Virus record (IMG/VR): IMGVR_UViG_3300026484_000284
Coordinates: 64,001-101,859 of that record
DNA length: 37,859 bases
Strand: one strand, 5' to 3'
Origin: a virus
Lineage: Duplodnaviria > Heunggongvirae > Uroviricota > Caudoviricetes
Position 1 is the first letter of the stretch. Each line of letters starts with the position of its first letter. The notes under the pieces were generated by a model that was not told the DNA's origin, did no database searches, and worked only from the letters and a program-made list of their open reading frames with translations. Shown here piece by piece: positions 11,437 to 30,998 of the stretch. The position numbers were made by a program, and so were the translations under genes.

Positions 11437-12789
11437 TCAATTTAATTCTTTAGCACTTTCTTCAATTTCAAAACATTCATTCAATGTATTTGATGTATCC
11501 TTATCTTCTCTAACTTCTATAAATCTTGGATGTAAAACACTATAAGTTCCATTTGAATTTTCACTTATCCCAGAACATTTAATAGTTACCACTTTACCAA
11601 CTAAACTATCTTTATTCTCCGTTAAGTAATTCATCATTGCTTCAGGAATACCACCAGCAGTAGTTTTTAATTTTCCATCTGCTGTTTCACATACAATTCT
11701 ATTAACAAAATTTTCATATTTTGTTCCGGAATTTCCATTTAATAAATCGGTTATGATGAGGTCTAATTCAATTTCTAATTTGAACTTCATTTGACTATTA
11801 GGTTTTCCGTCTTCCCAAACACTATCAGTATCTTTCAAAATGATACCTTCTTCTCCATTGTCTTTTGCTTCTAAATAACTATTCATAATTTCTTCATAAG
11901 TTGAAACCTCTTTATATTCAACTAAACCAATTTTAGAATTGATTTTATGGAATTCAATTAAATCTTTTCTTCTTTCATATAAAGGTTTTTCATATCTACC
12001 TTCTTGCCATTTATCAAGTGGTATAATATCCCAAGCAACCATATGAATTTTATTAAGTGCTTCGTTAGGAGTAATATCATAATTTTTTATAAAATTTTCA
12101 ACATCTTTTTGTCTTGAACCTTTTTCTATAAGTTGTTTTAATGAATTCACTAACCCATTAGCAATATATCTATGAAAACCTTCAACCAATATCTCACCTG
12201 TAACTACAAGATTTTTTGATTCAATTCCTTCAAATGCTTTTTCTAAAAATAATTTTTTACCACTTCTCGCAAGTGTTTCAACTCTTCCGTTCTCATCAAA
12301 AATCAAATTACAAAATAATCCATCATATTTTATTTCTGAATATAATTTTTTACCAATCATTTTTTGTAGTTTTTTCTTATTGAAACTTATCGCACCCATA
12401 TAATTGATAGTAGGTATTAAATTTTTATAAACTTTATTTATAAGTTTAGTGTTTATACCAACCTTCATATCTTTTGCTAAAATTTTGTCAAGCACTATCG
12501 CATCTCTCTCATTTAATTTACTTCTTAAAATAGTTACCATATCAATTGCTGCATTACCTGTAACTTCTCTATTTCTTAACTTGTCTAAATAGTCGAATAC
12601 TGCTTCAAGTTGGAACTCTCCTGAAAAACTTTTACCCTTTGGGTACTTTTTAATGTTAAAGGTATAAAATGGATTGTAAGTGTAAAATAACACTTTTCTA
12701 AATAATTCATTATCATTTTCTTTTAACATAACTTGCTTTTGATTAGTTGAATTTTCACCTTTTAATTTTTCTAAAATTGATAATATCAT
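11437..12789 (-). CDS. gp30: ATP-dependent DNA ligase (T4 gp30-like)
   Basis: EIKYDG motif I, TGEI motif III, EEGIILKD motif IV, MKFK motif V, LHPRFIEVREDK motif VI. Confidence 0.95.
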   Translation of the reverse strand: MILSILEKLKGENSTNQKQVMLKENDNELFRKVLFYTYNPFYTFNIKKYPKGKSFSGEFQLEAVFDYLDKLRNREVTGNAAIDMVTILRSKLNERDAIVLDKILAKDMKVGINTKLINKVYKNLIPTINYMGAISFNKKKLQKMIGKKLYSEIKYDGLFCNLIFDENGRVETLARSGKKLFLEKAFEGIESKNLVVTGEILVEGFHRYIANGLVNSLKQLIEKGSRQKDVENFIKNYDITPNEALNKIHMVAWDIIPLDKWQEGRYEKPLYERRKDLIEFHKINSKIGLVEYKEVSTYEEIMNSYLEAKDNGEEGIILKDTDSVWEDGKPNSQMKFKLEIELDLIITDLLNGNSGTKYENFVNRIVCETADGKLKTTAGGIPEAMMNYLTENKDSLVGKVVTIKCSGISENSNGTYSVLHPRFIEVREDKDTSNTLNECFEIEESAKELN

Positions 12790-12923
12790 TTTAACTCCTC
12801 TAAAATTTTTTTAAGTCTTATAACTTCACTATGTATATATACTTGCTCATTAAAATTTAATGATGTGTTTAAATCCACCTTTAACTTTTTTATCATTAAT
12901 TCAATTCTTTGTCTTTCTGTCAT
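12786..12923 (-). CDS. 45-aa ORF absent from the ORF track (MTERQRIELMIKKLKVDLNTSLNFNEQVYIHSEVIRLKKILEELK)
   Basis: AAAAGGA RBS; first gene behind a class I promoter; TGA overlaps the ligase ATG (ATGA). Confidence 0.75.
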   Translation of the reverse strand: MTERQRIELMIKKLKVDLNTSLNFNEQVYIHSEVIRLKKILEELK

Positions 12924-12953
12924 GCGAATTCCTTTTCGTTTATTTACATTATA

Positions 12954-12982
12954 ATTATAACAAAATAAAAATAAAAAGTCAA
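12954..12982 (-). promoter_or_regulatory. Class I promoter TTGACT-N17-TATAAT
   Basis: -35 at 12982-12977, -10 at 12959-12954. Confidence 0.85.
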
Positions 12983-13000
12983 GTAAATTTTAAAATAAAA

Positions 13001-13300
13001 TTACAAACTTTTACTCATTTGTTTATCAAAAGCACAAATAAGTTTATCATTTATTTCATTTAATTCTTCAAGTGTCAATTCTTTATCGAATAATTCTTTC
13101 ATTAAAATTATAACATCGGCATTATCTGAACCAAATAATATCATTTTACAAACTTTTACATTCATAATAGTTTCCATTTCATACTCATCTGCTTCAAGAA
13201 ATTCAATTTTTTCTTTAAGTCCAAAATTCATAATCGAAACTATTTCTGCTAAATCTTTAACTTTTATATTTATTATTTCATTTGTTAAATTTATTTTCAA
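13001..13300 (-). CDS. Hypothetical early protein with TTG start, 99 aa
   Basis: AAAAAGGA RBS in front of the TTG. Confidence 0.75.
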   Translation of the reverse strand: MKINLTNEIINIKVKDLAEIVSIMNFGLKEKIEFLEADEYEMETIMNVKVCKMILFGSDNADVIILMKELFDKELTLEELNEINDKLICAFDKQMSKSL

Positions 13301-13329
13301 GTGTATTCCTTTTTTGAATTTATAATATA

Positions 13330-13358
13330 ATTATAACAAAAAAGAAAGAAGAAGTCAA
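13330..13358 (-). promoter_or_regulatory. Class I promoter TTGACT-N17-TATAAT
   Basis: -35 at 13358-13353, -10 at 13335-13330. Confidence 0.85.
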
Positions 13359-13374
13359 GTAAAAATTATAAAAA

Positions 13375-13575
13375 TTAAAAATTTACTTGAATAAATTTAT
13401 ACCCATTTAATAAATTATCTCTTTTATTGACACTATAAATTTTATATTCTTCATCGTCAATTATTTCAAAGTCATAACCCTTTTGATATAACTCCTTAGC
13501 AGTTTCAAGTGCATCTTCAAAAACTTCAAATTCTTCTTTGAATTGTGCTATATCATTCTTGTATTTTAAAACCAA
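13375..13575 (-). CDS. Hypothetical protein, 66 aa
   Basis: ORF abutting the upstream gene. Confidence 0.65.
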   Translation of the reverse strand: MVLKYKNDIAQFKEEFEVFEDALETAKELYQKGYDFEIIDDEEYKIYSVNKRDNLLNGYKFIQVNF

Positions 13576-13576
13576 T

Positions 13577-14101
13577 TTATTCTCCTATAAAATTTTCCAG
13601 AAGTTCTATCACTTCATTTTCGTTATCACAAACATAATAATCACTTAATCTTCCTAGAATGTCATTTCTTATAATAGTGTCCAATTTTATTGCCTCTTCT
13701 TCACATTGTAGTCTCCCAAGTGGATTGAATTGACAACTTCTTCTTATTAAAATATCAATCGTCATAAATTTATCGTGTTTGTGAAATAAGTACTCTTTCA
13801 AAAATAAATCATCTGTATAAACACAACCAAGTAAAAATGGACTATCTGTGATTATAACATATTCATCTTCTTTTAAACCCTTATCTTTATAATACTTATC
13901 AACTCTCCATATCCTATGATATTGACTTGCAGAAATAAAGAATTGGTCTTGTAATTTTTTGTGTGATTCTTCATAAACTAAATCTTTGGCATATTCTGTA
14001 ACCAATTCAATTTGCTTATTTAGTTTTTTAAAATGGTTAAACACTCCTGCGGCAATGGTCGATTTTCTACAACCAGGACCCCCATACAAATTTACAATCA
14101 T
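13577..14101 (-). CDS. NadR/AAA_28-like P-loop nucleotide kinase/ATPase
   Basis: VNLYGGPGCRKST, ELVTEYAKDL, IITDSP, RLQCEEEA family motifs. Confidence 0.75.
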   Translation of the reverse strand: MIVNLYGGPGCRKSTIAAGVFNHFKKLNKQIELVTEYAKDLVYEESHKKLQDQFFISASQYHRIWRVDKYYKDKGLKEDEYVIITDSPFLLGCVYTDDLFLKEYLFHKHDKFMTIDILIRRSCQFNPLGRLQCEEEAIKLDTIIRNDILGRLSDYYVCDNENEVIELLENFIGE

Positions 14102-14110
14102 TTTTATTCC

Positions 14111-14521
14111 TTAACTTTTTACTTCAACTAAACAATTTTTTCCATATTTATTTATTGCTTCTTTAACAGATTTAACATTTATTTCATTCTTAAGATTTTT
14201 AAACCTTACAGGTTTTTCAAGTGATTCCAACTCTAACCTTGTCGCTTTTTTAAGATTAAGTGGTAACTCAATTTCGATATAAAACGAACCTTTAACTCTT
14301 AAAGTAAAATTCAATTCCGTTAAGTAGTTAGGTAAAACTTTTTCAACTTGTAAGTTCGGATAAATGTGTTTTAATGAAGCAGCATAATTTTTTTTAACTT
14401 TTTTTAGTGCTGCTTCCATCCTCTCCTGGAAATTTGGAATGGTATTATCTAACATTCCCAAAAACTCATCTGATTTTATTTCTTTTGAATTATCTAATTC
14501 ATAAGTCAATTTTAATATCAT
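14111..14521 (-). CDS. Hypothetical protein, 136 aa
   Basis: ORF with TAATG coupling. Confidence 0.7.
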   Translation of the reverse strand: MILKLTYELDNSKEIKSDEFLGMLDNTIPNFQERMEAALKKVKKNYAASLKHIYPNLQVEKVLPNYLTELNFTLRVKGSFYIEIELPLNLKKATRLELESLEKPVRFKNLKNEINVKSVKEAINKYGKNCLVEVKS

Positions 14522-21710: not shown

Positions 21711-21738
21711 ATTGTTAAATAATTTAAAAGGACTTAAA

Positions 21739-22230
21739 ATGTCTTATGGGAACATTTATTTAAAACTTAAAAATCAATATAAACATTTAAGCACTTCTTC
21801 AAAAGTGAAGAATCATCATACAACTACAAAAAAAACTAAACGAGGTCACCTTTATGGCGATTTTGTTCCTGTAAATGAAGATAAATTTATCATAGTTAAA
21901 AACAAACAAAATGGTGGTAAAATAAAATATCGTTCTTCTTGGGAAAAGAAATTTCTCGAATGGTGTGATTCAAATCCCAATGTTACCAAAATAATTTCTG
22001 AAGGTGTAAAAATACCTTATTATTTTGATGGAAAAGATAGAAATTACTATCCAGATTTTGTTATAAATTTTAAAAATGAAGTTTTACTTCTTGAAATAAA
22101 ACCAGCAAGTCAAGTTGATGACCCTATAAACATTGCTAAATTTGAAGCAGCAAAAAAATTTGCTGAAACAAGAAAAATAAAGTTTTTAATTCTTACAGAA
22201 AACGAATTAAAAAACCTTATTAAATCATAA
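21739..22230 (+). CDS. gp4: Head completion nuclease (T4 gp4-like, TnsA-type fold)
   Basis: YRSSWEKKFLEWCDSNPNV...IPY...YYPDF...EIKP; AAAGGA RBS before ATG 21739; TAAATA at 21716-21721. Confidence 0.85.
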   Translation: MSYGNIYLKLKNQYKHLSTSSKVKNHHTTTKKTKRGHLYGDFVPVNEDKFIIVKNKQNGGKIKYRSSWEKKFLEWCDSNPNVTKIISEGVKIPYYFDGKDRNYYPDFVINFKNEVLLLEIKPASQVDDPINIAKFEAAKKFAETRKIKFLILTENELKNLIKS

Positions 22231-23802: not shown

Positions 23803-25059
23803 TTATTCAAAATCTCCAAAATCAAAATCCCCACTCGATTCTTCAAACTTCAAATCACCTGCTGAGTCTTCAGGTACCCCAAAACTCGCATTTAATTGAC
23901 TTGTCAAATCCGGTAAATTATTGTTATCTACCTCATTAACTTTTTGATTCATTTGTTTAATTCCTGCTTGCTCATCAACGATACCTTTAAAGGCCATCCT
24001 TGAAAAATCAACTTCTAATAAAACCTTTTCAAGTTTCCCCGTGTATCTATTTTTGTCTGCTTTTAATATAATTTGCTTTTGCTGTCTCAATTCTTCATTC
24101 GATAACATACTTGCGGCAAAATCTGCTGTAGCAATAACACCGATTGACTCTGAAATGTTCTCCATTCCTGCTTCCGTATTGTTATAAGAACTTCTATTCA
24201 TTTGCGAACTTGAAATTATTATAATATCGTTTTGTTTTGCAAACCCGTGCAATTCTTCTGCTATACTTTTAAAATATGTATAAGAACCTTGACTTAATTT
24301 TGCTCTCGTTGATTTCATTAGGTTAAGATAATCAACCACGATATAATCCAACTTGATATTATGCTCATTTTCAATCTCATCTTTTAGGAATTGTAAATCA
24401 AATACACTAAAACCTCCAGCAGGATATTCCTTTACAAAAAATTTACCTGTGTAATCTTTAACTTTATCATATTTTGCCTTATACACTTCCCAACTCATAT
24501 TGTCGAATTCGTGTAGTTGAGTGTAAAGTAGATTAGCATCAAATCTTTTTAGTATTTCTGCTTCTTCCATTTCAAGTGAAACATATAAACCATTTTTCTT
24601 CTGTAAAGACATACCTGCAGCAGTTGCTATTTTTAGTGCCGTGTTATGATGTAAAATTCCATTAGCATCATAATATAAATGTGGTGCATCTAATGATAAA
24701 CCATATAAAAACTCATCTGTATTTTCTTTTATATTTAAGTGTTTAATTTTAACTAATCCTTCAACTGTTTCTAAATAATCTCCAACTTTTAAATCTTTAG
24801 CATAAATAATGTTTCCATTTATTACGAACCTGTGATTTAATGAAACCACAACTTCAATTCCGTTTTCAAGTGTAACTTCAACCCAATCCTCAGGTGTTTT
24901 TTTAACTAATTGTCTAATAGGCACAATACCATCTGGAGATTCAATATAACACTCATATTTTAAATCTGAAAATATATCACACTCATAACTCTCTTCTAAA
25001 AATTCATTGAATTCAAATAATTCACTTATTTCCATTGTTATTTTTTTTAAATCACTCAT
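23803..25059 (-). CDS. gp41: Replicative helicase gp41, C-terminal half preceded by a 139-aa IntC
   Basis: ...GILHHN|TALK..YVSLEM..IVVDYLNLM..SSQMNR..ISESIG..KNRY DnaB-family motifs. Confidence 0.9.
   Translation of the reverse strand: MSDLKKITMEISELFEFNEFLEESYECDIFSDLKYECYIESPDGIVPIRQLVKKTPEDWVEVTLENGIEVVVSLNHRFVINGNIIYAKDLKVGDYLETVEGLVKIKHLNIKENTDEFLYGLSLDAPHLYYDANGILHHNTALKIATAAGMSLQKKNGLYVSLEMEEAEILKRFDANLLYTQLHEFDNMSWEVYKAKYDKVKDYTGKFFVKEYPAGGFSVFDLQFLKDEIENEHNIKLDYIVVDYLNLMKSTRAKLSQGSYTYFKSIAEELHGFAKQNDIIIISSSQMNRSSYNNTEAGMENISESIGVIATADFAASMLSNEELRQQKQIILKADKNRYTGKLEKVLLEVDFSRMAFKGIVDEQAGIKQMNQKVNEVDNNNLPDLTSQLNASFGVPEDSAGDLKFEESSGDFDFGDFE
24643..25059 (-). mobile_element. Split intein C-fragment of gp41 (139 aa)
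   Basis: SLNH block B, AKDLKVGD, LYGLSL block F, HHN/T block G. Confidence 0.9.
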
Positions 25060-25175
25060 TATTTTCTCCTTTAAGTGTCCCTATTATATTAAAATACTTT
25101 ATAAATTTAATGTTATGTTTTTCAATAGTTTTTTTGAATTTATAATTTTTTATTATAAACATCTTTATCCATTAA

Positions 25176-25206
25176 AAAAGAAATAGATTTCAGGTCTATT
25201 TCTTTT
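25176..25206 (-). terminator. Intrinsic terminator-like hairpin between the two gp41 halves
   Basis: 12-bp perfect stem AAAAGAAATAGA/TCTATTTCTTTT with a 7-nt loop; ends in a U run on the minus strand; stem is AU-rich. Confidence 0.6.
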
Positions 25207-25225
25207 ATGTATGTTATGCTTTTTT

Positions 25226-25933
25226 TTAAGAATTCAATTTTTTATTTCTTTTCCACTCTTCGAACTTTTTTCGTGTTTTTTCATCTACATATATATTCAA
25301 TTTTGTATCTTTTCTTAAACATTTACCTCCGTGCGATGGCGCCAAAAATAAATTTAATGTTTTACTTCTGAAACCACCACCTAATAAATCGTCAAGAACA
25401 TTTATTCCAGTTGAAATTTTTCTAAATTCTTCTTGATATTTTTTAAATCTATTTTCCAAGTCATTATGGAACTCTAAACCTAAATCCGTATCAAAATTAT
25501 AATTTAGTGCCTTTTCAAATTTTACGATTATATCATTTTCAATATCGTCTTTTTGTTTTAATTCATCGACACTTTCCAAGATAGCATCCATCAATGAAAT
25601 CTTTTTTAAGTGCCTTTGAGTGAATTGTATTAAAAAGTCAAAATTTTTTATATCTTGCTCATTTTTTAATTCTGTTTTAATGTAATTAAAAACATTCTGT
25701 TTTAAATTTTTGTCTAATCCACTTTCCATAACAAAAAGCGCCAATTCTTTAATTGACGGAGATTTCTCAAATTTTTTATGAAATTTTTCAATATATTGAT
25801 ATATCGTCTTAGTTTCAACTTTTTTAAAATTATTGCCTTCTAATTTTGAAAATACTCTGGCAAAATAAGCAGGATTCTTCATAAGGTGAAAAATTATAAT
25901 TTTTTCTCCATCGAGATTGTCTAATTCATTCAT
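25226..25933 (-). CDS. gp41: Replicative helicase gp41, N-terminal half followed by a 31-aa IntN
   Basis: FDTDLGLEF..RFKKY..ISTGINVLDDLLGGG..KTLNLFLAPSHGGK|CLRKDT. Confidence 0.9.
   Translation of the reverse strand: MNELDNLDGEKIIIFHLMKNPAYFARVFSKLEGNNFKKVETKTIYQYIEKFHKKFEKSPSIKELALFVMESGLDKNLKQNVFNYIKTELKNEQDIKNFDFLIQFTQRHLKKISLMDAILESVDELKQKDDIENDIIVKFEKALNYNFDTDLGLEFHNDLENRFKKYQEEFRKISTGINVLDDLLGGGFRSKTLNLFLAPSHGGKCLRKDTKLNIYVDEKTRKKFEEWKRNKKLNS
25229..25321 (-). mobile_element. Split intein N-fragment of gp41 (31 aa)
   Basis: Block A CLRKDTKLNIYVD directly after the Walker A lysine, then a stop. Confidence 0.85.
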
Positions 25934-25992
25934 ATTGTTTCTCCTTTAAATATATTAAAAATGATTGTATTTGTATTTATAGTCATAATATA

Positions 25993-26022
25993 ATTATAAT
26001 ATAATTGAAATTTAAAATTAAC
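25993..26022 (-). promoter_or_regulatory. Class II promoter GTTAATT-N17-TATAAT upstream of gp41-N
   Basis: -10 at 25998-25993, GTTAATT at 26022-26016. Confidence 0.65.
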
Positions 26023-26037
26023 CTTAAGGATTTTATA

Positions 26038-27060
26038 ATGTGTGTAATAATAGCAAAAAAAATAAAAAATATAAACGATGAGTTAGAATGGAACCTTTTT
26101 AAATTTAGGGACAGAGCATATGACCCAAAATATGTTCTTAAATCATTCATCTATAAAAATGTAGAAGTGTTATACCTTAAAGACAAAAAATCAGAATGGA
26201 TTGAAGGGATAAATTCTTTTGGAATAACACTTGTATCTGCTGCCCTTGATAATCATTCAGATGCTTCAATAGGTGGTGGAAGTAACACCTCACAACTTTT
26301 TAGAGATTACTTAAAAACTGCCAATGAAAGAAATAGTATCATCATAAAAAGGGTATTAAGACAAACATCTATTGAAGATGCTCTTGAAGTTCTTGTGGAT
26401 TCAAAATTTATTGGTAATACTTTCTTAACAGATGGTAAAAAACTTTTTAGTATTGAAATATCTATACCTCAAAAAAAATTATTAAATTACAGAAATTCTT
26501 CTGAAGATTTAGCAAATTTAAAATGGTCTGACTTCAAAGCAAAAATTATGAGCAATCTTGAAGAAACCGATTTTAAAGTTTCTGTTAAAGAAGCATCAAC
26601 TGAAAGATTACTTATTAAAACCAACCACTCTATACAAATGAAAAATTTAGGATATCGTCCAGAACATAAAGGTTATAAGTCAAGTGTTAAAAGAAGAGAA
26701 ATTGTTAAAAATTTTACGAAAAGCATTAAAACAGATTCTATTGAGAACATAATGTATCTTTTAACAAATCTTGACAACCCAAAACATTCAAAAAATCCTG
26801 AATTAAGACCACTAAGAACAAAAGAAAAAACTTCATTATCAAAAAAAGAAAAAGAAAAACAAAATATAACTGATTATTATACAACTGATATTTTTGGATT
26901 TTCACCTTCAAAAAGAACAATGTATTTATTACCTATTCATTCAAAAACAGAAAAAGGTAGTTTTGATAATAAAGAAACTCAATGCCATTTTATCACATTA
27001 AGTAGGAGTTTCCTTAAAGAAAACTTATGTGAAATTCTTTATACGGATATTAACGATTAA
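26038..27060 (+). CDS. N-terminal nucleophile (Ntn) hydrolase-like protein, 340 aa
   Basis: AAGGA RBS gives start MCVIIAK (Cys2); FRDR and WIEGINSFG resemble NRDE/C45-type motifs. Confidence 0.6.
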   Translation: MCVIIAKKIKNINDELEWNLFKFRDRAYDPKYVLKSFIYKNVEVLYLKDKKSEWIEGINSFGITLVSAALDNHSDASIGGGSNTSQLFRDYLKTANERNSIIIKRVLRQTSIEDALEVLVDSKFIGNTFLTDGKKLFSIEISIPQKKLLNYRNSSEDLANLKWSDFKAKIMSNLEETDFKVSVKEASTERLLIKTNHSIQMKNLGYRPEHKGYKSSVKRREIVKNFTKSIKTDSIENIMYLLTNLDNPKHSKNPELRPLRTKEKTSLSKKEKEKQNITDYYTTDIFGFSPSKRTMYLLPIHSKTEKGSFDNKETQCHFITLSRSFLKENLCEILYTDIND

Positions 27061-27475
27061 ATTCGTTGAAATTTTCCTGAATTTCTTTTAGTGTCGAATT
27101 TTTAAGATATTTCAAATATTTATATGCCATTTCGTCATTTATTTTGAAATACCACTTTACTGCTTCTAAATAAACCGATTTTTTAATTTTAGGTTTTGAA
27201 GGATATCTAACAAACCCAACTTTCCCAAAAAGCAGTTGTATCAATTCAATAGATTTTTCTTGTGGTATTGCCATAACATTAAACTGATTTAATGTTTCTA
27301 TAAACTTAGGTTCTGAACTTAAATGCTGTAAAAGCATATATTCGCTCACTTTCTTAAACTCTTCTTTGGGTAATTTACCATTAAAAAGTTTTTTGTGATA
27401 GTCAAACATACCTAATTTCTTCTCTTTTTTAACTTCACTTTCTTTTTTATGTTCTTCATCAAAAAATAATCCCAT
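27050..27475 (-). CDS. gp62: Clamp loader small subunit (T4 gp62-like)
   Basis: YMLLQHLS...NQFN...FVRYPSK...LEAVKWYFKINDEMAYKYL; AAGGAG RBS before ATG 27475. Confidence 0.7.
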   Translation of the reverse strand: MGLFFDEEHKKESEVKKEKKLGMFDYHKKLFNGKLPKEEFKKVSEYMLLQHLSSEPKFIETLNQFNVMAIPQEKSIELIQLLFGKVGFVRYPSKPKIKKSVYLEAVKWYFKINDEMAYKYLKYLKNSTLKEIQENFNEFNR

Positions 27476-27485
27476 TTTGTTCTCC

Positions 27486-28025
27486 TTAAAATAGACTCCC
27501 GTCTTCAATAATTATATTTTTAAAAATTTTTTCATCTAATTTCCATCGCATAAATTTCATTAAATAATCTATCTTATTATAAATTATTTTTTGAAAGGTG
27601 TTTAGTTTTTTATTTTTAGATAAAAAGTATAAAGTATAAAAACTTATTTTCCCGTTTTGATATAATTGGAATATCTCATCAATTTCAATTTTTAAACTAT
27701 TTTCCATTAAAAATTCAATGTCTGCCTGTATATATTTTAATGGATTTTTCATAATGTCTTTAAATTTATAATAATTGCTTCTATCTTTTAAATTATCGTG
27801 GCAATAATTCAAAAAGGTTTCAAAGTTACTTGCTGAGTATTTATAAGTTACAAAAATAGCAAGTAAAGCAATGAATTTCTTTTCGTAATTTTTAAAAGGT
27901 AATAAATAACTACTATAATGCTCAATAGTGTTTTTTGTATATTTTACACTTTTTAATCTTTTATTTATTTTCGAACCTTCATATATTCTTCTGAGTAATA
28001 CATATAATTCTAAATCATCGTTCAT
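27486..28025 (-). CDS. gp59: Helicase loader (T4 gp59-like)
   Basis: Position next to gp33; QLYQNGKISFYTLYFL resembles the gp59 C-terminal motif. Confidence 0.5.
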   Translation of the reverse strand: MNDDLELYVLLRRIYEGSKINKRLKSVKYTKNTIEHYSSYLLPFKNYEKKFIALLAIFVTYKYSASNFETFLNYCHDNLKDRSNYYKFKDIMKNPLKYIQADIEFLMENSLKIEIDEIFQLYQNGKISFYTLYFLSKNKKLNTFQKIIYNKIDYLMKFMRWKLDEKIFKNIIIEDGSLF

Positions 28026-28033
28026 AATTTCTC

Positions 28034-28309
28034 CTAAAAGAATCCTAATCCACTTAACTTGTTATCTTTTTGAACTTTTTTGCTCATTGCTAAATTTTTA
28101 ATCACTTCACTTGCCTCGATATAATCTTCAATGTCTTCAACTCGAAAATTGTTTTTTTCGCAAAATCCAAGAATCCCATCTATTAAATCAAGTTGAGGAT
28201 TCTTATTGAGGAACGAAACTATATTATTTTCTAATATAGTAATAATTTGTTCCTTATTTTCAGGAGTTGGGATTATAAATGGTATATCTTTTAATTTTAT
28301 ATTTTTCAT
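28034..28309 (-). CDS. gp33: Late-transcription coactivator (T4 gp33-like)
   Basis: LIDGILGFCEKNNFRVEDI resembles the gp33 helix motif. Confidence 0.65.
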   Translation of the reverse strand: MKNIKLKDIPFIIPTPENKEQIITILENNIVSFLNKNPQLDLIDGILGFCEKNNFRVEDIEDYIEASEVIKNLAMSKKVQKDNKLSGLGFF

Positions 28310-28316
28310 CTTAACC

Positions 28317-29468
28317 TCAATATACCGACATCAATTTTAATAAAAATGCCATTAAAGTAATTTCTTTGTTTTTAGCAATTTTATCCATTTCTTGATACCT
28401 TGCCAATTCCCCAACTATCCCAGGTTGTTTTTGTGCTGGTAAAAATTCGTCCATTTTTTTCCAAAACCAAGTGTAAAAATTTGAAGGGTTATTGAGTAAC
28501 ATAACCATTCCTCTTGTCGTACTATAATTTTTTTCTTTAACTTTTTCCATTAAGTCGGTAAAAATATCATCTACATCCAAATTTTGGAGTTTTAGTTTTC
28601 CATTGACTACATTATCTTGTAATGAAATTGTCATATTTCTCATAGAAGGATAGTGCTTTTTAACTATTTCACCTATATCCTTTTTATCGTACTCAACACC
28701 TTCAATTTCGCAAATATCTATAAGTCTTTTATACATTTTTTTGGCAATTTCGTTTTTATGTTCTTGAAAAATAATATCAAAATCAAAAACAATAAATCTA
28801 CTCAATAAAGGTTCTATGAATCTATCTTTATAGTTTCCTGTTAGAAAAAATCTAACATTACCAGCATATTGCTCAATCACTCCCCTTAAAATATCTTGTG
28901 CTCCTGCACTTCCTTGACTTGAAGTCGTTAGGTTATCTGCTTCGTCTAAAACCAATAGTTTTCTTTTACCTTGTGCTGACATAGTACTTGCAAAACTCAC
29001 GATTTCATTTCTAATGGTCGAAACCGAATTATCCTGAGAAGCATTTATCCATTTTACATCTGAATCTAACTCGTGAATTAAAGCATTTAACATACTTCCC
29101 TTACCTGTATTATGAGATGAAACTTCATTTAGGAAGTATTGGTGCTTTTCACTATCAACAGTTAAGTCATAAACCGGTTTCACTTCATTTGTTTCTTCAA
29201 TAAATAAAACCTCAATAATTCCTTTTTCACTTAAAATTTCTTGACCTATTTTTAAATCTTTTGAATAAACCCATCCGTTTTCAATTTCAAAAAGATGATT
29301 TTCGGCGACCTCCATAAAGTCAAGTTCTTCATTATATTCATAATATACTATAATAGTTTTCTCTTTTTTTGTTACGGATGCTATAACATTTTCAAATCCT
29401 GTATCTGTTTTAATTTTTAAAGTTGAATTATTGAAATAATAATCCAAATTTTTTACATCAATTAACAT
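28317..29468 (-). CDS. gp44: Clamp loader large subunit gp44, C-terminal part preceded by a 120-aa IntC
   Basis: VSSHN|TGKGS...INAS...LVLDEADNL...QDILRGVIE...TGNY...LLSRF RFC motifs. Confidence 0.92.
   Translation of the reverse strand: MLIDVKNLDYYFNNSTLKIKTDTGFENVIASVTKKEKTIIVYYEYNEELDFMEVAENHLFEIENGWVYSKDLKIGQEILSEKGIIEVLFIEETNEVKPVYDLTVDSEKHQYFLNEVSSHNTGKGSMLNALIHELDSDVKWINASQDNSVSTIRNEIVSFASTMSAQGKRKLLVLDEADNLTTSSQGSAGAQDILRGVIEQYAGNVRFFLTGNYKDRFIEPLLSRFIVFDFDIIFQEHKNEIAKKMYKRLIDICEIEGVEYDKKDIGEIVKKHYPSMRNMTISLQDNVVNGKLKLQNLDVDDIFTDLMEKVKEKNYSTTRGMVMLLNNPSNFYTWFWKKMDEFLPAQKQPGIVGELARYQEMDKIAKNKEITLMAFLLKLMSVY
29109..29468 (-). mobile_element. Split intein C-fragment of gp44 (120 aa)
   Basis: KIKTDTGF, AENH block B, VYDLTV block F, SHN/T block G; own AAGGAG RBS. 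Confidence 0.9.
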
Positions 29469-30187
29469 TTTATCTCCTTAATAAATTTTTCAAATTCTTG
29501 TGGTAACAAAATAATGGCACCAAATTTGAATTCTTTGTAAATCATTTTAGCATCATATTCATAATTACCTTTCAAACCAGCAATTTCTATATACATATTT
29601 TTTGAAGGAATATAAAAATCACATCGCATTCTTGAATTAGTATAATGTTTTTCCAATTCAAATTTTATATCATTTTCTTTCAATAAATCATAAAAATTTA
29701 TTTCATAACTACTTCTCAATAAACCTTCACTGACTTTTTTTGTATATCCATATCTTGATTTATGATTTTCAATGGGATTATATAAAACCCCAATCTTATT
29801 TTCAATATCACTTTTAAAAAATTTTATGGGCTTAATAAATTCTTTAGGCACCACGAAATTACAATAATTTTTATATTTTTCAACATAAAAATCAATATAA
29901 CTATTTTTTGAAGAATATTTTTTGAGAATTATATCATTTAATTGTTTGTTTTTTGAAATTGATTCTTTCGTATATTTTTTTAAATAACATTCACAATATT
30001 CTTCAAAATCCTTCGAATAAGTCCAATCCATTTTTATTCTATCAAAGTATTTTTGAATCGTGCTTCTGTTTTGTAATGATTCTTTCCATTTGTTTTGTCT
30101 TGACTTCCAAATCTGAAACGCCACACCAATAGGATATTTTTTAATTAGTTTTTCAAGTGAAAAGGTTGTTTGTCTTTCTTTCAACAT
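29462..30187 (-). CDS. Homing-endonuclease-like PD-(D/E)xK (Vsr/DUF559-type) protein between the gp44 halves; frame open upstream to 30268
   Basis: LRSSYE...RCDFYIP...YIEIAG; location inside a fractured gene. Confidence 0.7.
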   Translation of the reverse strand: MLKERQTTFSLEKLIKKYPIGVAFQIWKSRQNKWKESLQNRSTIQKYFDRIKMDWTYSKDFEEYCECYLKKYTKESISKNKQLNDIILKKYSSKNSYIDFYVEKYKNYCNFVVPKEFIKPIKFFKSDIENKIGVLYNPIENHKSRYGYTKKVSEGLLRSSYEINFYDLLKENDIKFELEKHYTNSRMRCDFYIPSKNMYIEIAGLKGNYEYDAKMIYKEFKFGAIILLPQEFEKFIKEIKC

Positions 30188-30263
30188 TTTTTTAGCAGTT
30201 CCCTCATCATATCCTTTTTCTAAATAGTATTCAATTCTTGTCGTAAAAGTTTTTTTATATTTT

Positions 30264-30279
30264 TCAGGGGTGTTCCTTT
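30264..30279 (-). other. Candidate +1 ribosomal frameshift cassette AAAGGAA-CAC-CCC-TGA
   Basis: The +1 frame continues PEKYKKTFTTRIEYYLEKGYDEGTAKK without a stop into the endonuclease ORF. Confidence 0.5.
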
Positions 30280-30998
30280 ACTAACTTTGATTTGATTTTC
30301 CCGTTTTTTGATTGTATCATAAATACTTGTTTTTGTGCTTCTTCAATACTAAATCCTCTATTAACCCAAAATGAAACGGTTGAAGGTTGCTGCTTTTCAA
30401 AAAAATCCATCTCTTTATTGTCAATAATCGCTTTTCTAAGTTTTAATAAAGTAACTTTTCCGTCTATATTTTGTTTAAAATTCAAATCTTTAAAATCATT
30501 CTCAAAGTATTTTTTTCTTCTTCTAATTCTTTTAGTTGTCTCGACTGCTTCTTCAAAAGTTTTAAAATTTAACCAATAAATGAATTTAGGATATTTACTT
30601 TTGAATTTCTTATCTTCTTTAATTAAATTTATTATACGACTTTTATTTTTATCCCAATTTTCTGAAATTTTTTTATATGCTATTTCATTTACTTCAAAAG
30701 TATCTTTTGAAACTTCATAGGTTAAGTTTTCAAATAATGTTTTTGATTTTAACAACGGGAATTTCTTCAATAATTCTTTTTTATGTAAAGAATCAACTCT
30801 AACTTCCACATTATTACCTTCAACACTACACCCTGGAGTGCTACTTACAAACATAATATTCGGAATATTACTTTTATCTATATACTCTTGAAATTTTTCC
30901 ATAAGATAATCTGGTAAAACCACATCCTTTAATCTTTGGGGGCGATATTTCTCAACCCATAAGTCGTTAAACTTTTCATTATACACTAAATCTGGCAT
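30264..30998 (-). CDS. gp44: Clamp loader gp44 N-terminal 56 aa, IntN, and endonuclease-associated tail
   Basis: LWVEKYRPQRLKDVVLP RFC box; SSTPG|CSVEGN intein start in Walker A. Confidence 0.9.
   Translation of the reverse strand: MPDLVYNEKFNDLWVEKYRPQRLKDVVLPDYLMEKFQEYIDKSNIPNIMFVSSTPGCSVEGNNVEVRVDSLHKKELLKKFPLLKSKTLFENLTYEVSKDTFEVNEIAYKKISENWDKNKSRIINLIKEDKKFKSKYPKFIYWLNFKTFEEAVETTKRIRRRKKYFENDFKDLNFKQNIDGKVTLLKLRKAIIDNKEMDFFEKQQPSTVSFWVNRGFSIEEAQKQVFMIQSKNGKIKSKLVKEHP

Follow-up and report, generated by a model that had tools for sequence, protein, structure and literature searches.

The window analysed in this study, 37,859 nucleotides corresponding to bases 64001-101859 of the 101,859-bp IMG/VR virus record IMGVR_UViG_3300026484_000284 (CheckV completeness 46%), carries two replication genes of an uncultured T4-like phage that are each broken in two by a split intein: gp41, encoding a DnaB-like helicase, and gp44, encoding the large subunit of the clamp loader. 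We consider the two elements to be independently acquired, mobile, VidaL-like inteins of the S1-split type that fracture their host genes as selfish passengers, not as regulators, and whose pairs most likely do not cross-react (estimated probability of this reading about 0.75).

Anatomy and boundaries of the two elements

The boundaries were obtained by comparison with a sister contig, IMGVR_UViG_3300026521_000463 (L006), which is fully syntenic with the window at a DNA identity of 82-88%. It contains an unbroken gp44 (319 amino acids, aa) and an unbroken gp41 (484 aa), and both inteins are absent. Because L006 provides intein-less alleles of both genes, the intein boundaries are fixed to the codon. 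The window exteins, joined in silico, matched the L006 proteins with gap-free junctions (98.1% aa identity for gp44, 95.9% for gp41), and the inserted elements measure 1722 bp in gp44 (30830..29109) and 679 bp in gp41 (25321..24643). Each element begins with a Cys codon (Cys1), ends with His-Asn and is followed by Thr as the first residue of the C-extein (Thr+1).

The original prediction, made for this stretch before any database search, had described four open reading frames (ORFs) on the minus strand and two inteins with Cys1 and Thr+1, both lying in Walker A loops. All of this was recovered. The two inteins differ in their position within the P-loop: gp41 is interrupted after the Walker A Lys (GK|T), and gp44 three residues earlier (G|TGK). 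The helicase is encoded by ORFs of 235 aa (25933..25226) and 418 aa (25059..23803), and the clamp-loader subunit by ORFs of 244 aa (30998..30264) and 383 aa (29468..28317) with a 241-aa ORF between them, all on the minus strand. The individual features, with the intein halves designated IntN and IntC, are:

25322..25933, minus strand: gp41 N-extein, 204 aa, its last residue being the Walker A Lys (ORF, Pfam, L006 alignment)
25226..25321, minus strand: gp41 IntN, a 13-residue core with an 18-residue basic tail (net charge +5) and stop codon (ORF, L006 alignment)
25060..25225, minus strand: spacer of 166 bp with a 12-bp hairpin and U run (25206..25174) and a Shine-Dalgarno sequence (25070..25066)
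24643..25059, minus strand: gp41 IntC, 139 aa, with acidic N-terminal helix, block B His and His-His-Asn end (Intein_splicing and PT-HINT, Pfam)
23803..24642, minus strand: gp41 C-extein, starting with Thr+1, DnaB_C domain (Pfam, GenBank matches, L006 alignment)
30831..30998, minus strand: gp44 N-extein, 56 aa, with the first half of Walker A at its end (phrog_168, Rad17 P-loop; gap-free to residues 1-56 of L006 gp44)
30792..30830, minus strand: gp44 IntN core, Cys1 and 12 further residues (beta1-beta2), starting where L006 gp44 continues with Thr
30264..30791, minus strand: continuation of the gp44 N-half reading frame, 175 aa, net charge +17, ending CCC TGA (30269..30264) (ORF, tblastn)
29462..30187, minus strand: ORF for the endonuclease, called at 241 aa and lying between the two halves of gp44 (phrog_9019, E 2e-5; weak DpnII-MboI match)
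29109..29468, minus strand: gp44 IntC, 120 aa, with alpha-1, block B His, blocks F and G and His-Asn end (PT-HINT, Pfam)
28317..29108, minus strand: gp44 C-extein, Thr+1 and the rest of Walker A, AAA and Gp44_lid domains (98% identical to L006 gp44)

No endonuclease gene lies between the gp41 halves, which are separated by the spacer only. The hairpin 3' of the gp41 N half is stable by folding (dG -11.3 kcal/mol, z -4.7); a consensus terminator scan did not call it because its stem is AT-rich. Strong Shine-Dalgarno sequences precede both C halves; that of gp44 is located at 29479..29474, and the start of this C half overlaps the stop of the endonuclease ORF.

The gp44 N half does not end after its basic stretch. 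It runs on in frame, 175 residues in all, without a stop after the intein piece, through the basic stretch and then two DNA-binding repeats of endonuclease type. In tblastn searches, endonucleases of other fractured loci matched the frame of this tail and then the +1 frame, in which the repeat homology of the endonuclease reaches upstream to ~30268, that is, 5' of the annotated ATG of the 241-aa ORF. The C-terminal domain encoded by this ORF is of the PD-(D/E)XK nuclease type. The break at CCC TGA (30263-30269) may reflect a decaying gene with a one-base change in the C run, an error of sequencing or assembly, or a programmed +1 shift, any of which would account for it.

Intein fold, lineages and mobility

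Both elements are class 1 split inteins with a HINT fold and an S1-type break directly after beta2. Their N halves keep strands beta1 and beta2 only (13 residues), and alpha1, block B and the rest are found in the C halves. The block B His and the terminal His-Asn are invariant in our multiple alignment A2 (His76 and His138-Asn139 of the gp41 C half, and the same residues in the gp44 C half), and the block F Asp is present in the gp44 intein. Pfam PF14890 lacked the sensitivity to pick up these C halves and was replaced by a profile built from alignment A2. Sequence searches of the PDB returned VidaL as the best match of the gp44 C half (E 1.8e-5); for the gp41 C half they returned gp41-1 (E 2.5e-4), followed by VidaL and the Cat consensus (CatC). 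AlphaFold2 models had a mean pLDDT (predicted local distance difference test) of 82 for each C half. Every Foldseek match listed with E < 1e-3, for both C halves, was an intein or an intein-like HINT domain. VidaL was the top match of the gp44 C half (6vgv, E 3.4e-6, TM 0.69), and gp41-1, Cat and VidaL were among the matches listed for the gp41 C half.

The parallel starts of the N halves, predicted originally, were seen as a 13-residue beta1-beta2 core followed in each pair by 18 residues of net charge +5. Likewise, the C halves are acidic as expected (net -15 for gp41 and -13 for gp44, isoelectric point ~4.5). The further claim that they start at an equivalent position finds support in the AlphaFold2 models, which open with a helix in both cases (residues 11-17 in gp41 and 5-14 in gp44). 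MAFFT did not pair the two helices; it aligned the first residues of the gp44 C half with positions 25-34 of its gp41 counterpart, so that the equivalent start rests on the modelled secondary structure. Among known natural atypical splits, the N fragment measures 15-37 aa. Here, the gp41 N fragment has 31 aa; that of gp44 has a 13-aa core, resembling the 13-18-aa IntN of its clade-B relatives, and its ORF runs 175 residues further.

Relatives of the gp44 intein were inspected at the best 80 of 239 IMG/VR loci. The insertion site was the gp41 P-loop in 78 of the 80, with 60 split and 18 contiguous inteins. The contiguous relatives have a short beta2-alpha1 loop, and the split relatives end their N half at that loop after 13-18 residues; the break can be assigned to the beta2-alpha1 loop because contiguous and split alleles of the same intein were compared.

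Maximum-likelihood analysis of the C halves placed the gp41 intein with that of L007 (also in gp41), a Vibrio phage gp41 intein and the GK|T-site inteins of UvsW-like helicases (support 100/99). The gp44 intein grouped with inteins of PhoH-like ATPases (support 100/99), apart from the large gp41 clade. The two window inteins are independent arrivals and not products of a duplication. Between the window and L007, the C halves of the gp41 intein are 73% identical and the helicase N-exteins only 34%, with dN of 0.19 and dS of ~1.7 (saturated). It follows that this intein has been transferred between distant phages and evolves under purifying selection. L007 also retains the basic tail of gp41 IntN. 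No convincing co-conversion tract was found round the insertion sites; nucleotide identity between window and L006 dips slightly there (0.81-0.86 vs 0.88-0.90).

For the gp44 C half, scans of IMG/VR for close relatives gave only the intein-less L006, and a scan of metagenome contigs gave none. The idea that gp44 was a new intein host was dropped, as P-loop inteins turned up in further clamp loaders in an exhaustive HMMER search, split in P0009, P0051, P0081 and P0124 and contiguous in P0039 and P0061, with both sub-sites in use. No mention of split inteins in phage gp44 was found in the papers searched.

Several related loci deserve separate description. Near-identical gp41 P-loop inteins occur in split form in the IMG/VR locus L032, with an opposite-strand HNH endonuclease gene between the halves, and in contiguous form in L034. 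Across alleles, the loop after beta2 holds endonucleases of different families (HNH, Vsr-like and PD-(D/E)XK). In the cultured Vibrio phage vB_VmeM-32 (L001; KU160494.1, bases ~65794-68669), gp41 is likewise fractured, which its annotation does not show: an N half with a 27-aa intein piece is followed by a 378-aa ORF for a Vsr-like endonuclease, and the C-half gene has no coding-sequence annotation. Further HINT matches in this record lie in TerL (two), UvsX and PolB; the terminase intein is split atypically, those of UvsX and PolB canonically. In L015 (3336-6779; IMGVR_UViG_3300033064_008235), a UvsW-like superfamily 2 helicase is encoded in three pieces, with an atypical split intein and a Vsr-like endonuclease gene in Walker A and a canonical split intein in the DECH box. 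The UvsW-type inteins of L008-L018 show a helix alpha1-like motif (Pro/Ser-x-Gly-Lys type) in both the N-half tail and the start of the C half; this type of break may perhaps have come with a duplication or overlap of the alpha1-like segment.

Predicted splicing and partner choice among co-resident pairs

Profile searches found exactly three HINT domains on the contig. The third, outside the window, splits the family B DNA polymerase (PolB) at the DTD|S motif (L002 493-3314, minus strand; contig bases ~11599-14420). Its N half has 13 residues and starts with Ser1, its C half has 155 residues and ends with His-Asn followed by Ser+1, and the intein is cysteine-free throughout. The matches were Mja KlbA (2e-18), Aes123 PolB1 (9hth, 1e-14) and PolB16 (8cpn, 3e-5). 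Two ORFs of 78 and 194 aa, without a recognised endonuclease domain, lie between the PolB halves. With this third intein, six fragments, not four, must find their right partners. The coexistence of fragments stated in the original prediction is upheld by the lack of an unbroken second copy of gp41 or gp44 on the 102-kb contig (record rated 46% complete), whereas its count of four is not. Triple occupancy is not universal, the common gp41 P-loop intein being the sole one in five larger genomes that carry it; multiple split inteins per genome do recur in related phages.

From these features we infer that the gp41 and gp44 pairs splice. Each half-gene would be translated separately. The C piece, long and already mostly folded, would take up the two strands of the short N piece, and the HINT domain thus completed would splice and so re-form the Walker A loop of gp41 or gp44. 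Splicing is a precondition for the function of both proteins because an intein inside Walker A leaves the unspliced halves inactive.

Certain observations weigh against our reading. The gp44 N half bears the 175-residue tail and a broken endonuclease frame. The gp41 intein carries Gly at the position where most inteins have the block F Asp. Intact copies of gp41 and gp44 may sit in the missing part of the genome, the contig being 46% complete. Finally, non-cognate docking is conceivable, given the like charge polarity of the two pairs and their similar hydrophobic positions in beta2.

The first two points could be taken to mean that one pair is splicing-dead, that of gp44 through its fused tail or that of gp41 through the block F Gly, and that we are dealing with a defective phage or a non-covalent complex. 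Fragmented phage enzymes that are assembled without splicing do exist (PMC3045599), and at gp44 the N half continues into endonuclease repeats that are followed by a frameshift. An unspliced intein within Walker A should, however, kill the ATPase, and the remaining catalytic residues of the inteins are all intact. The block F Asp is common among inteins, not universal. In alignment A2 the same Gly is found in the diverged, 73%-identical L007 intein, so it is no fresh defect, and the gp41 intein is under purifying selection. An N piece embedded in a larger protein is still able to trans-splice (PMC3443213), and the long gp44 tail therefore need not block the reaction. Taken together, we regard a dead pair as very improbable.

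For the choice of partner, the two pairs share few residues. The N cores of gp41 and gp44 have 3 of 13 residues in common (23%), and the PolB core shares 1/13 and 0/13 with them. The C halves of gp41 and gp44 are 32% identical over the last 71 residues, with no alignment before that. In published work, the Ssp DnaX C piece cross-spliced with small N pieces whose identity to its native partner was only 40-50% (PMC3443213), and in a 24 x 24 matrix cross-talk came mostly from atypically split short pieces (PMC7090010). Since the divergence here is well beyond these published cases, orthogonality is likely, probably as a passive result of ancestry. By our reading, the gp41, gp44 and PolB pairs would not cross-react because they are of long-diverged lineages, and there is no sign of mutual tuning in this genome.

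Partial cross-reaction, with the phage tolerating some dead-end gp41/gp44 chimeras, is an unlikely alternative for which a chemical case can be made. A mixed complex is chemically competent because both pairs use Cys1 and Thr+1; the beta2 hydrophobic pattern and the charge polarity are common to both, and there is the precedent at 40-50% N-piece identity (PMC3443213). Against this, N-core identity is as low as 23%, the C halves can be aligned over their C-terminal half only, and chimeras would waste essential subunits of the replisome.

It has also to be asked if orthogonality is an evolved requirement, with similar pairs selected against or a tail/helix zipper specific to each pair, or if trans-splicing times replisome assembly. 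Short N pieces are known cross-reactors (PMC3443213, PMC7090010), and L007 has kept the basic tail of gp41 IntN. Four other phage records were compared: the cultured Vibrio phage vB_VmeM-32 and three IMG/VR contigs whose inteins lie in UvsW, UvsX, DnaB or TerL, one of these contigs encoding a three-piece UvsW-like helicase with one atypical and one canonical split intein. Their co-resident C halves of atypical split were 23-36% identical where the alignment was significant and <=39% over the aligned stretches, similar to the 32% found here. This range is compatible with a ceiling on similarity, and equally with unrelated site-specific lineages, of which it is also typical, so that no ceiling is proved. 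As to a zipper, many clade-B N halves are nearly tail-less, and charge cannot separate cognate from non-cognate partners because both pairs have the same polarity (basic N tail, acidic C half). Both inteins are dispensable, as the L006 phage replicates without either of them. A gate on replisome assembly, raised in the original prediction, is thus unsupported, since the L006 phage does without both inteins at 96-98% identical exteins and the elements bear the marks of selfish mobility. Evolved orthogonality or timed assembly is quite unlikely on this evidence.

A bolder extension, which we put forward as doubtful, would see in the gp41, gp44 and PolB inteins a naturally selected orthogonal set with 13-residue N cores, whose specificity would reside in a few outward residues of beta1-beta2 and be maintained by selection against replisome chimeras. 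In addition, the in-frame gp44 fusion could yield a two-chain intein-endonuclease after splicing.

Relation to known systems and genome setting

The characterised split inteins gp41-1, gp41-8, NrdJ-1 and IMPDH-1 are split at the canonical site, with a long N and a short C piece. VidaL (PDB 6vgv/6vgw), like the window inteins, is a natural phage-type split intein with Cys1 that is cut right after beta2, although identity to the window C halves is only ~24-25% in the Foldseek alignments. The VidaL N piece is given as ~16 aa (Burton et al., 2020, as quoted in PMC13014065); the natural N-half ORFs described here, unlike it, have extra tails of 18 (gp41) and 175 aa (gp44), and the hosts are gp41 and gp44. 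The S1 break site has been described for VidaL and PolB16, and the S2 site for TerL inteins (PMC13014065). The Cat consensus of AceL-TerL and GOS-TerL (PDB 6dsl) was a fold match of both C halves; these two terminase inteins are cut after helix alpha1 (S2), whereas the window inteins are S1-split and reside in gp41 and gp44.

Fractured genes of the kind reported by Dassa et al. in 2009 (gp41-1 to gp41-9, NrdJ-1 and IMPDH-1) are essential phage genes that consist of two ORFs, each with an intein half, and a free-standing homing endonuclease between them (PMC2677866). Their allele gp41-7 lacks the endonuclease, as does the gp41 locus here (PMC2677866). However, gp41-1 to gp41-7 occupy another gp41 site, near residue 356 of the P-SSM2 protein, while the S1 cut described here lies in the P-loop, and the endonuclease at gp44 has a nuclease domain of the PD-(D/E)XK type and not a Vsr-like one.

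The PolB intein matched PolB16 OarG (PDB 8cpn; PMC10189870) and Aes123 PolB1 / CL (PDB 9hth). By reading of the 9hth alignment, its DTD|S site is that of Aes123 PolB1; here the intein is atypically split. PolB16 has been termed the only natural cysteine-less atypically split intein (PMC13014065), and the PolB pair of this contig would be the second.

None of the components is new in kind: genes fractured by split inteins are on record (PMC2677866), as are atypical S1 splits (VidaL, PolB16) and the concentration of inteins at ATP-binding sites in proteins of the replisome (PMC4760082). The papers searched gave no account of three S1-split inteins sharing one replisome, of a natural S1 split without cysteine at the DTD|S site of PolB, or of whether S1-split pairs are orthogonal in nature. 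The loci indicate that VidaL-like inteins hop among the P-loops of ATPases (gp41, gp44, UvsW-like helicase, UvsX and PhoH) and that one replisome can hold several split inteins simultaneously. Split inteins with short N pieces are sought as tools for protein ligation, and sets that do not cross-react are scarce. One genome here yields three short-N pairs that must work in parallel on essential proteins, and they are ready candidates for orthogonality testing.

The window has a G+C content of ~25%, and nearly every gene is on the minus strand. No phage of the GenBank collection has replication proteins more than ~38% identical to those found here, the best matches being T4-like phages of Campylobacter, cyanobacteria and Vibrio. 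Between the gp41 and gp44 loci lie genes for the small clamp-loader subunit and the late-transcription coactivator and two genes of no known function. The sole sizeable plus-strand gene of the block (26005-27060, 351 aa) coincides with a sign change of the GC and AT skews, has a conserved counterpart in L006 (8060-9079) and belongs to no Pfam or PHROG family. Another ORF of 172 aa (21712-22230), likewise on the plus strand and thus opposite to most genes, has a PD-(D/E)XK-like motif, is conserved in L006 at 12189-12680 and may be a free-standing nuclease.

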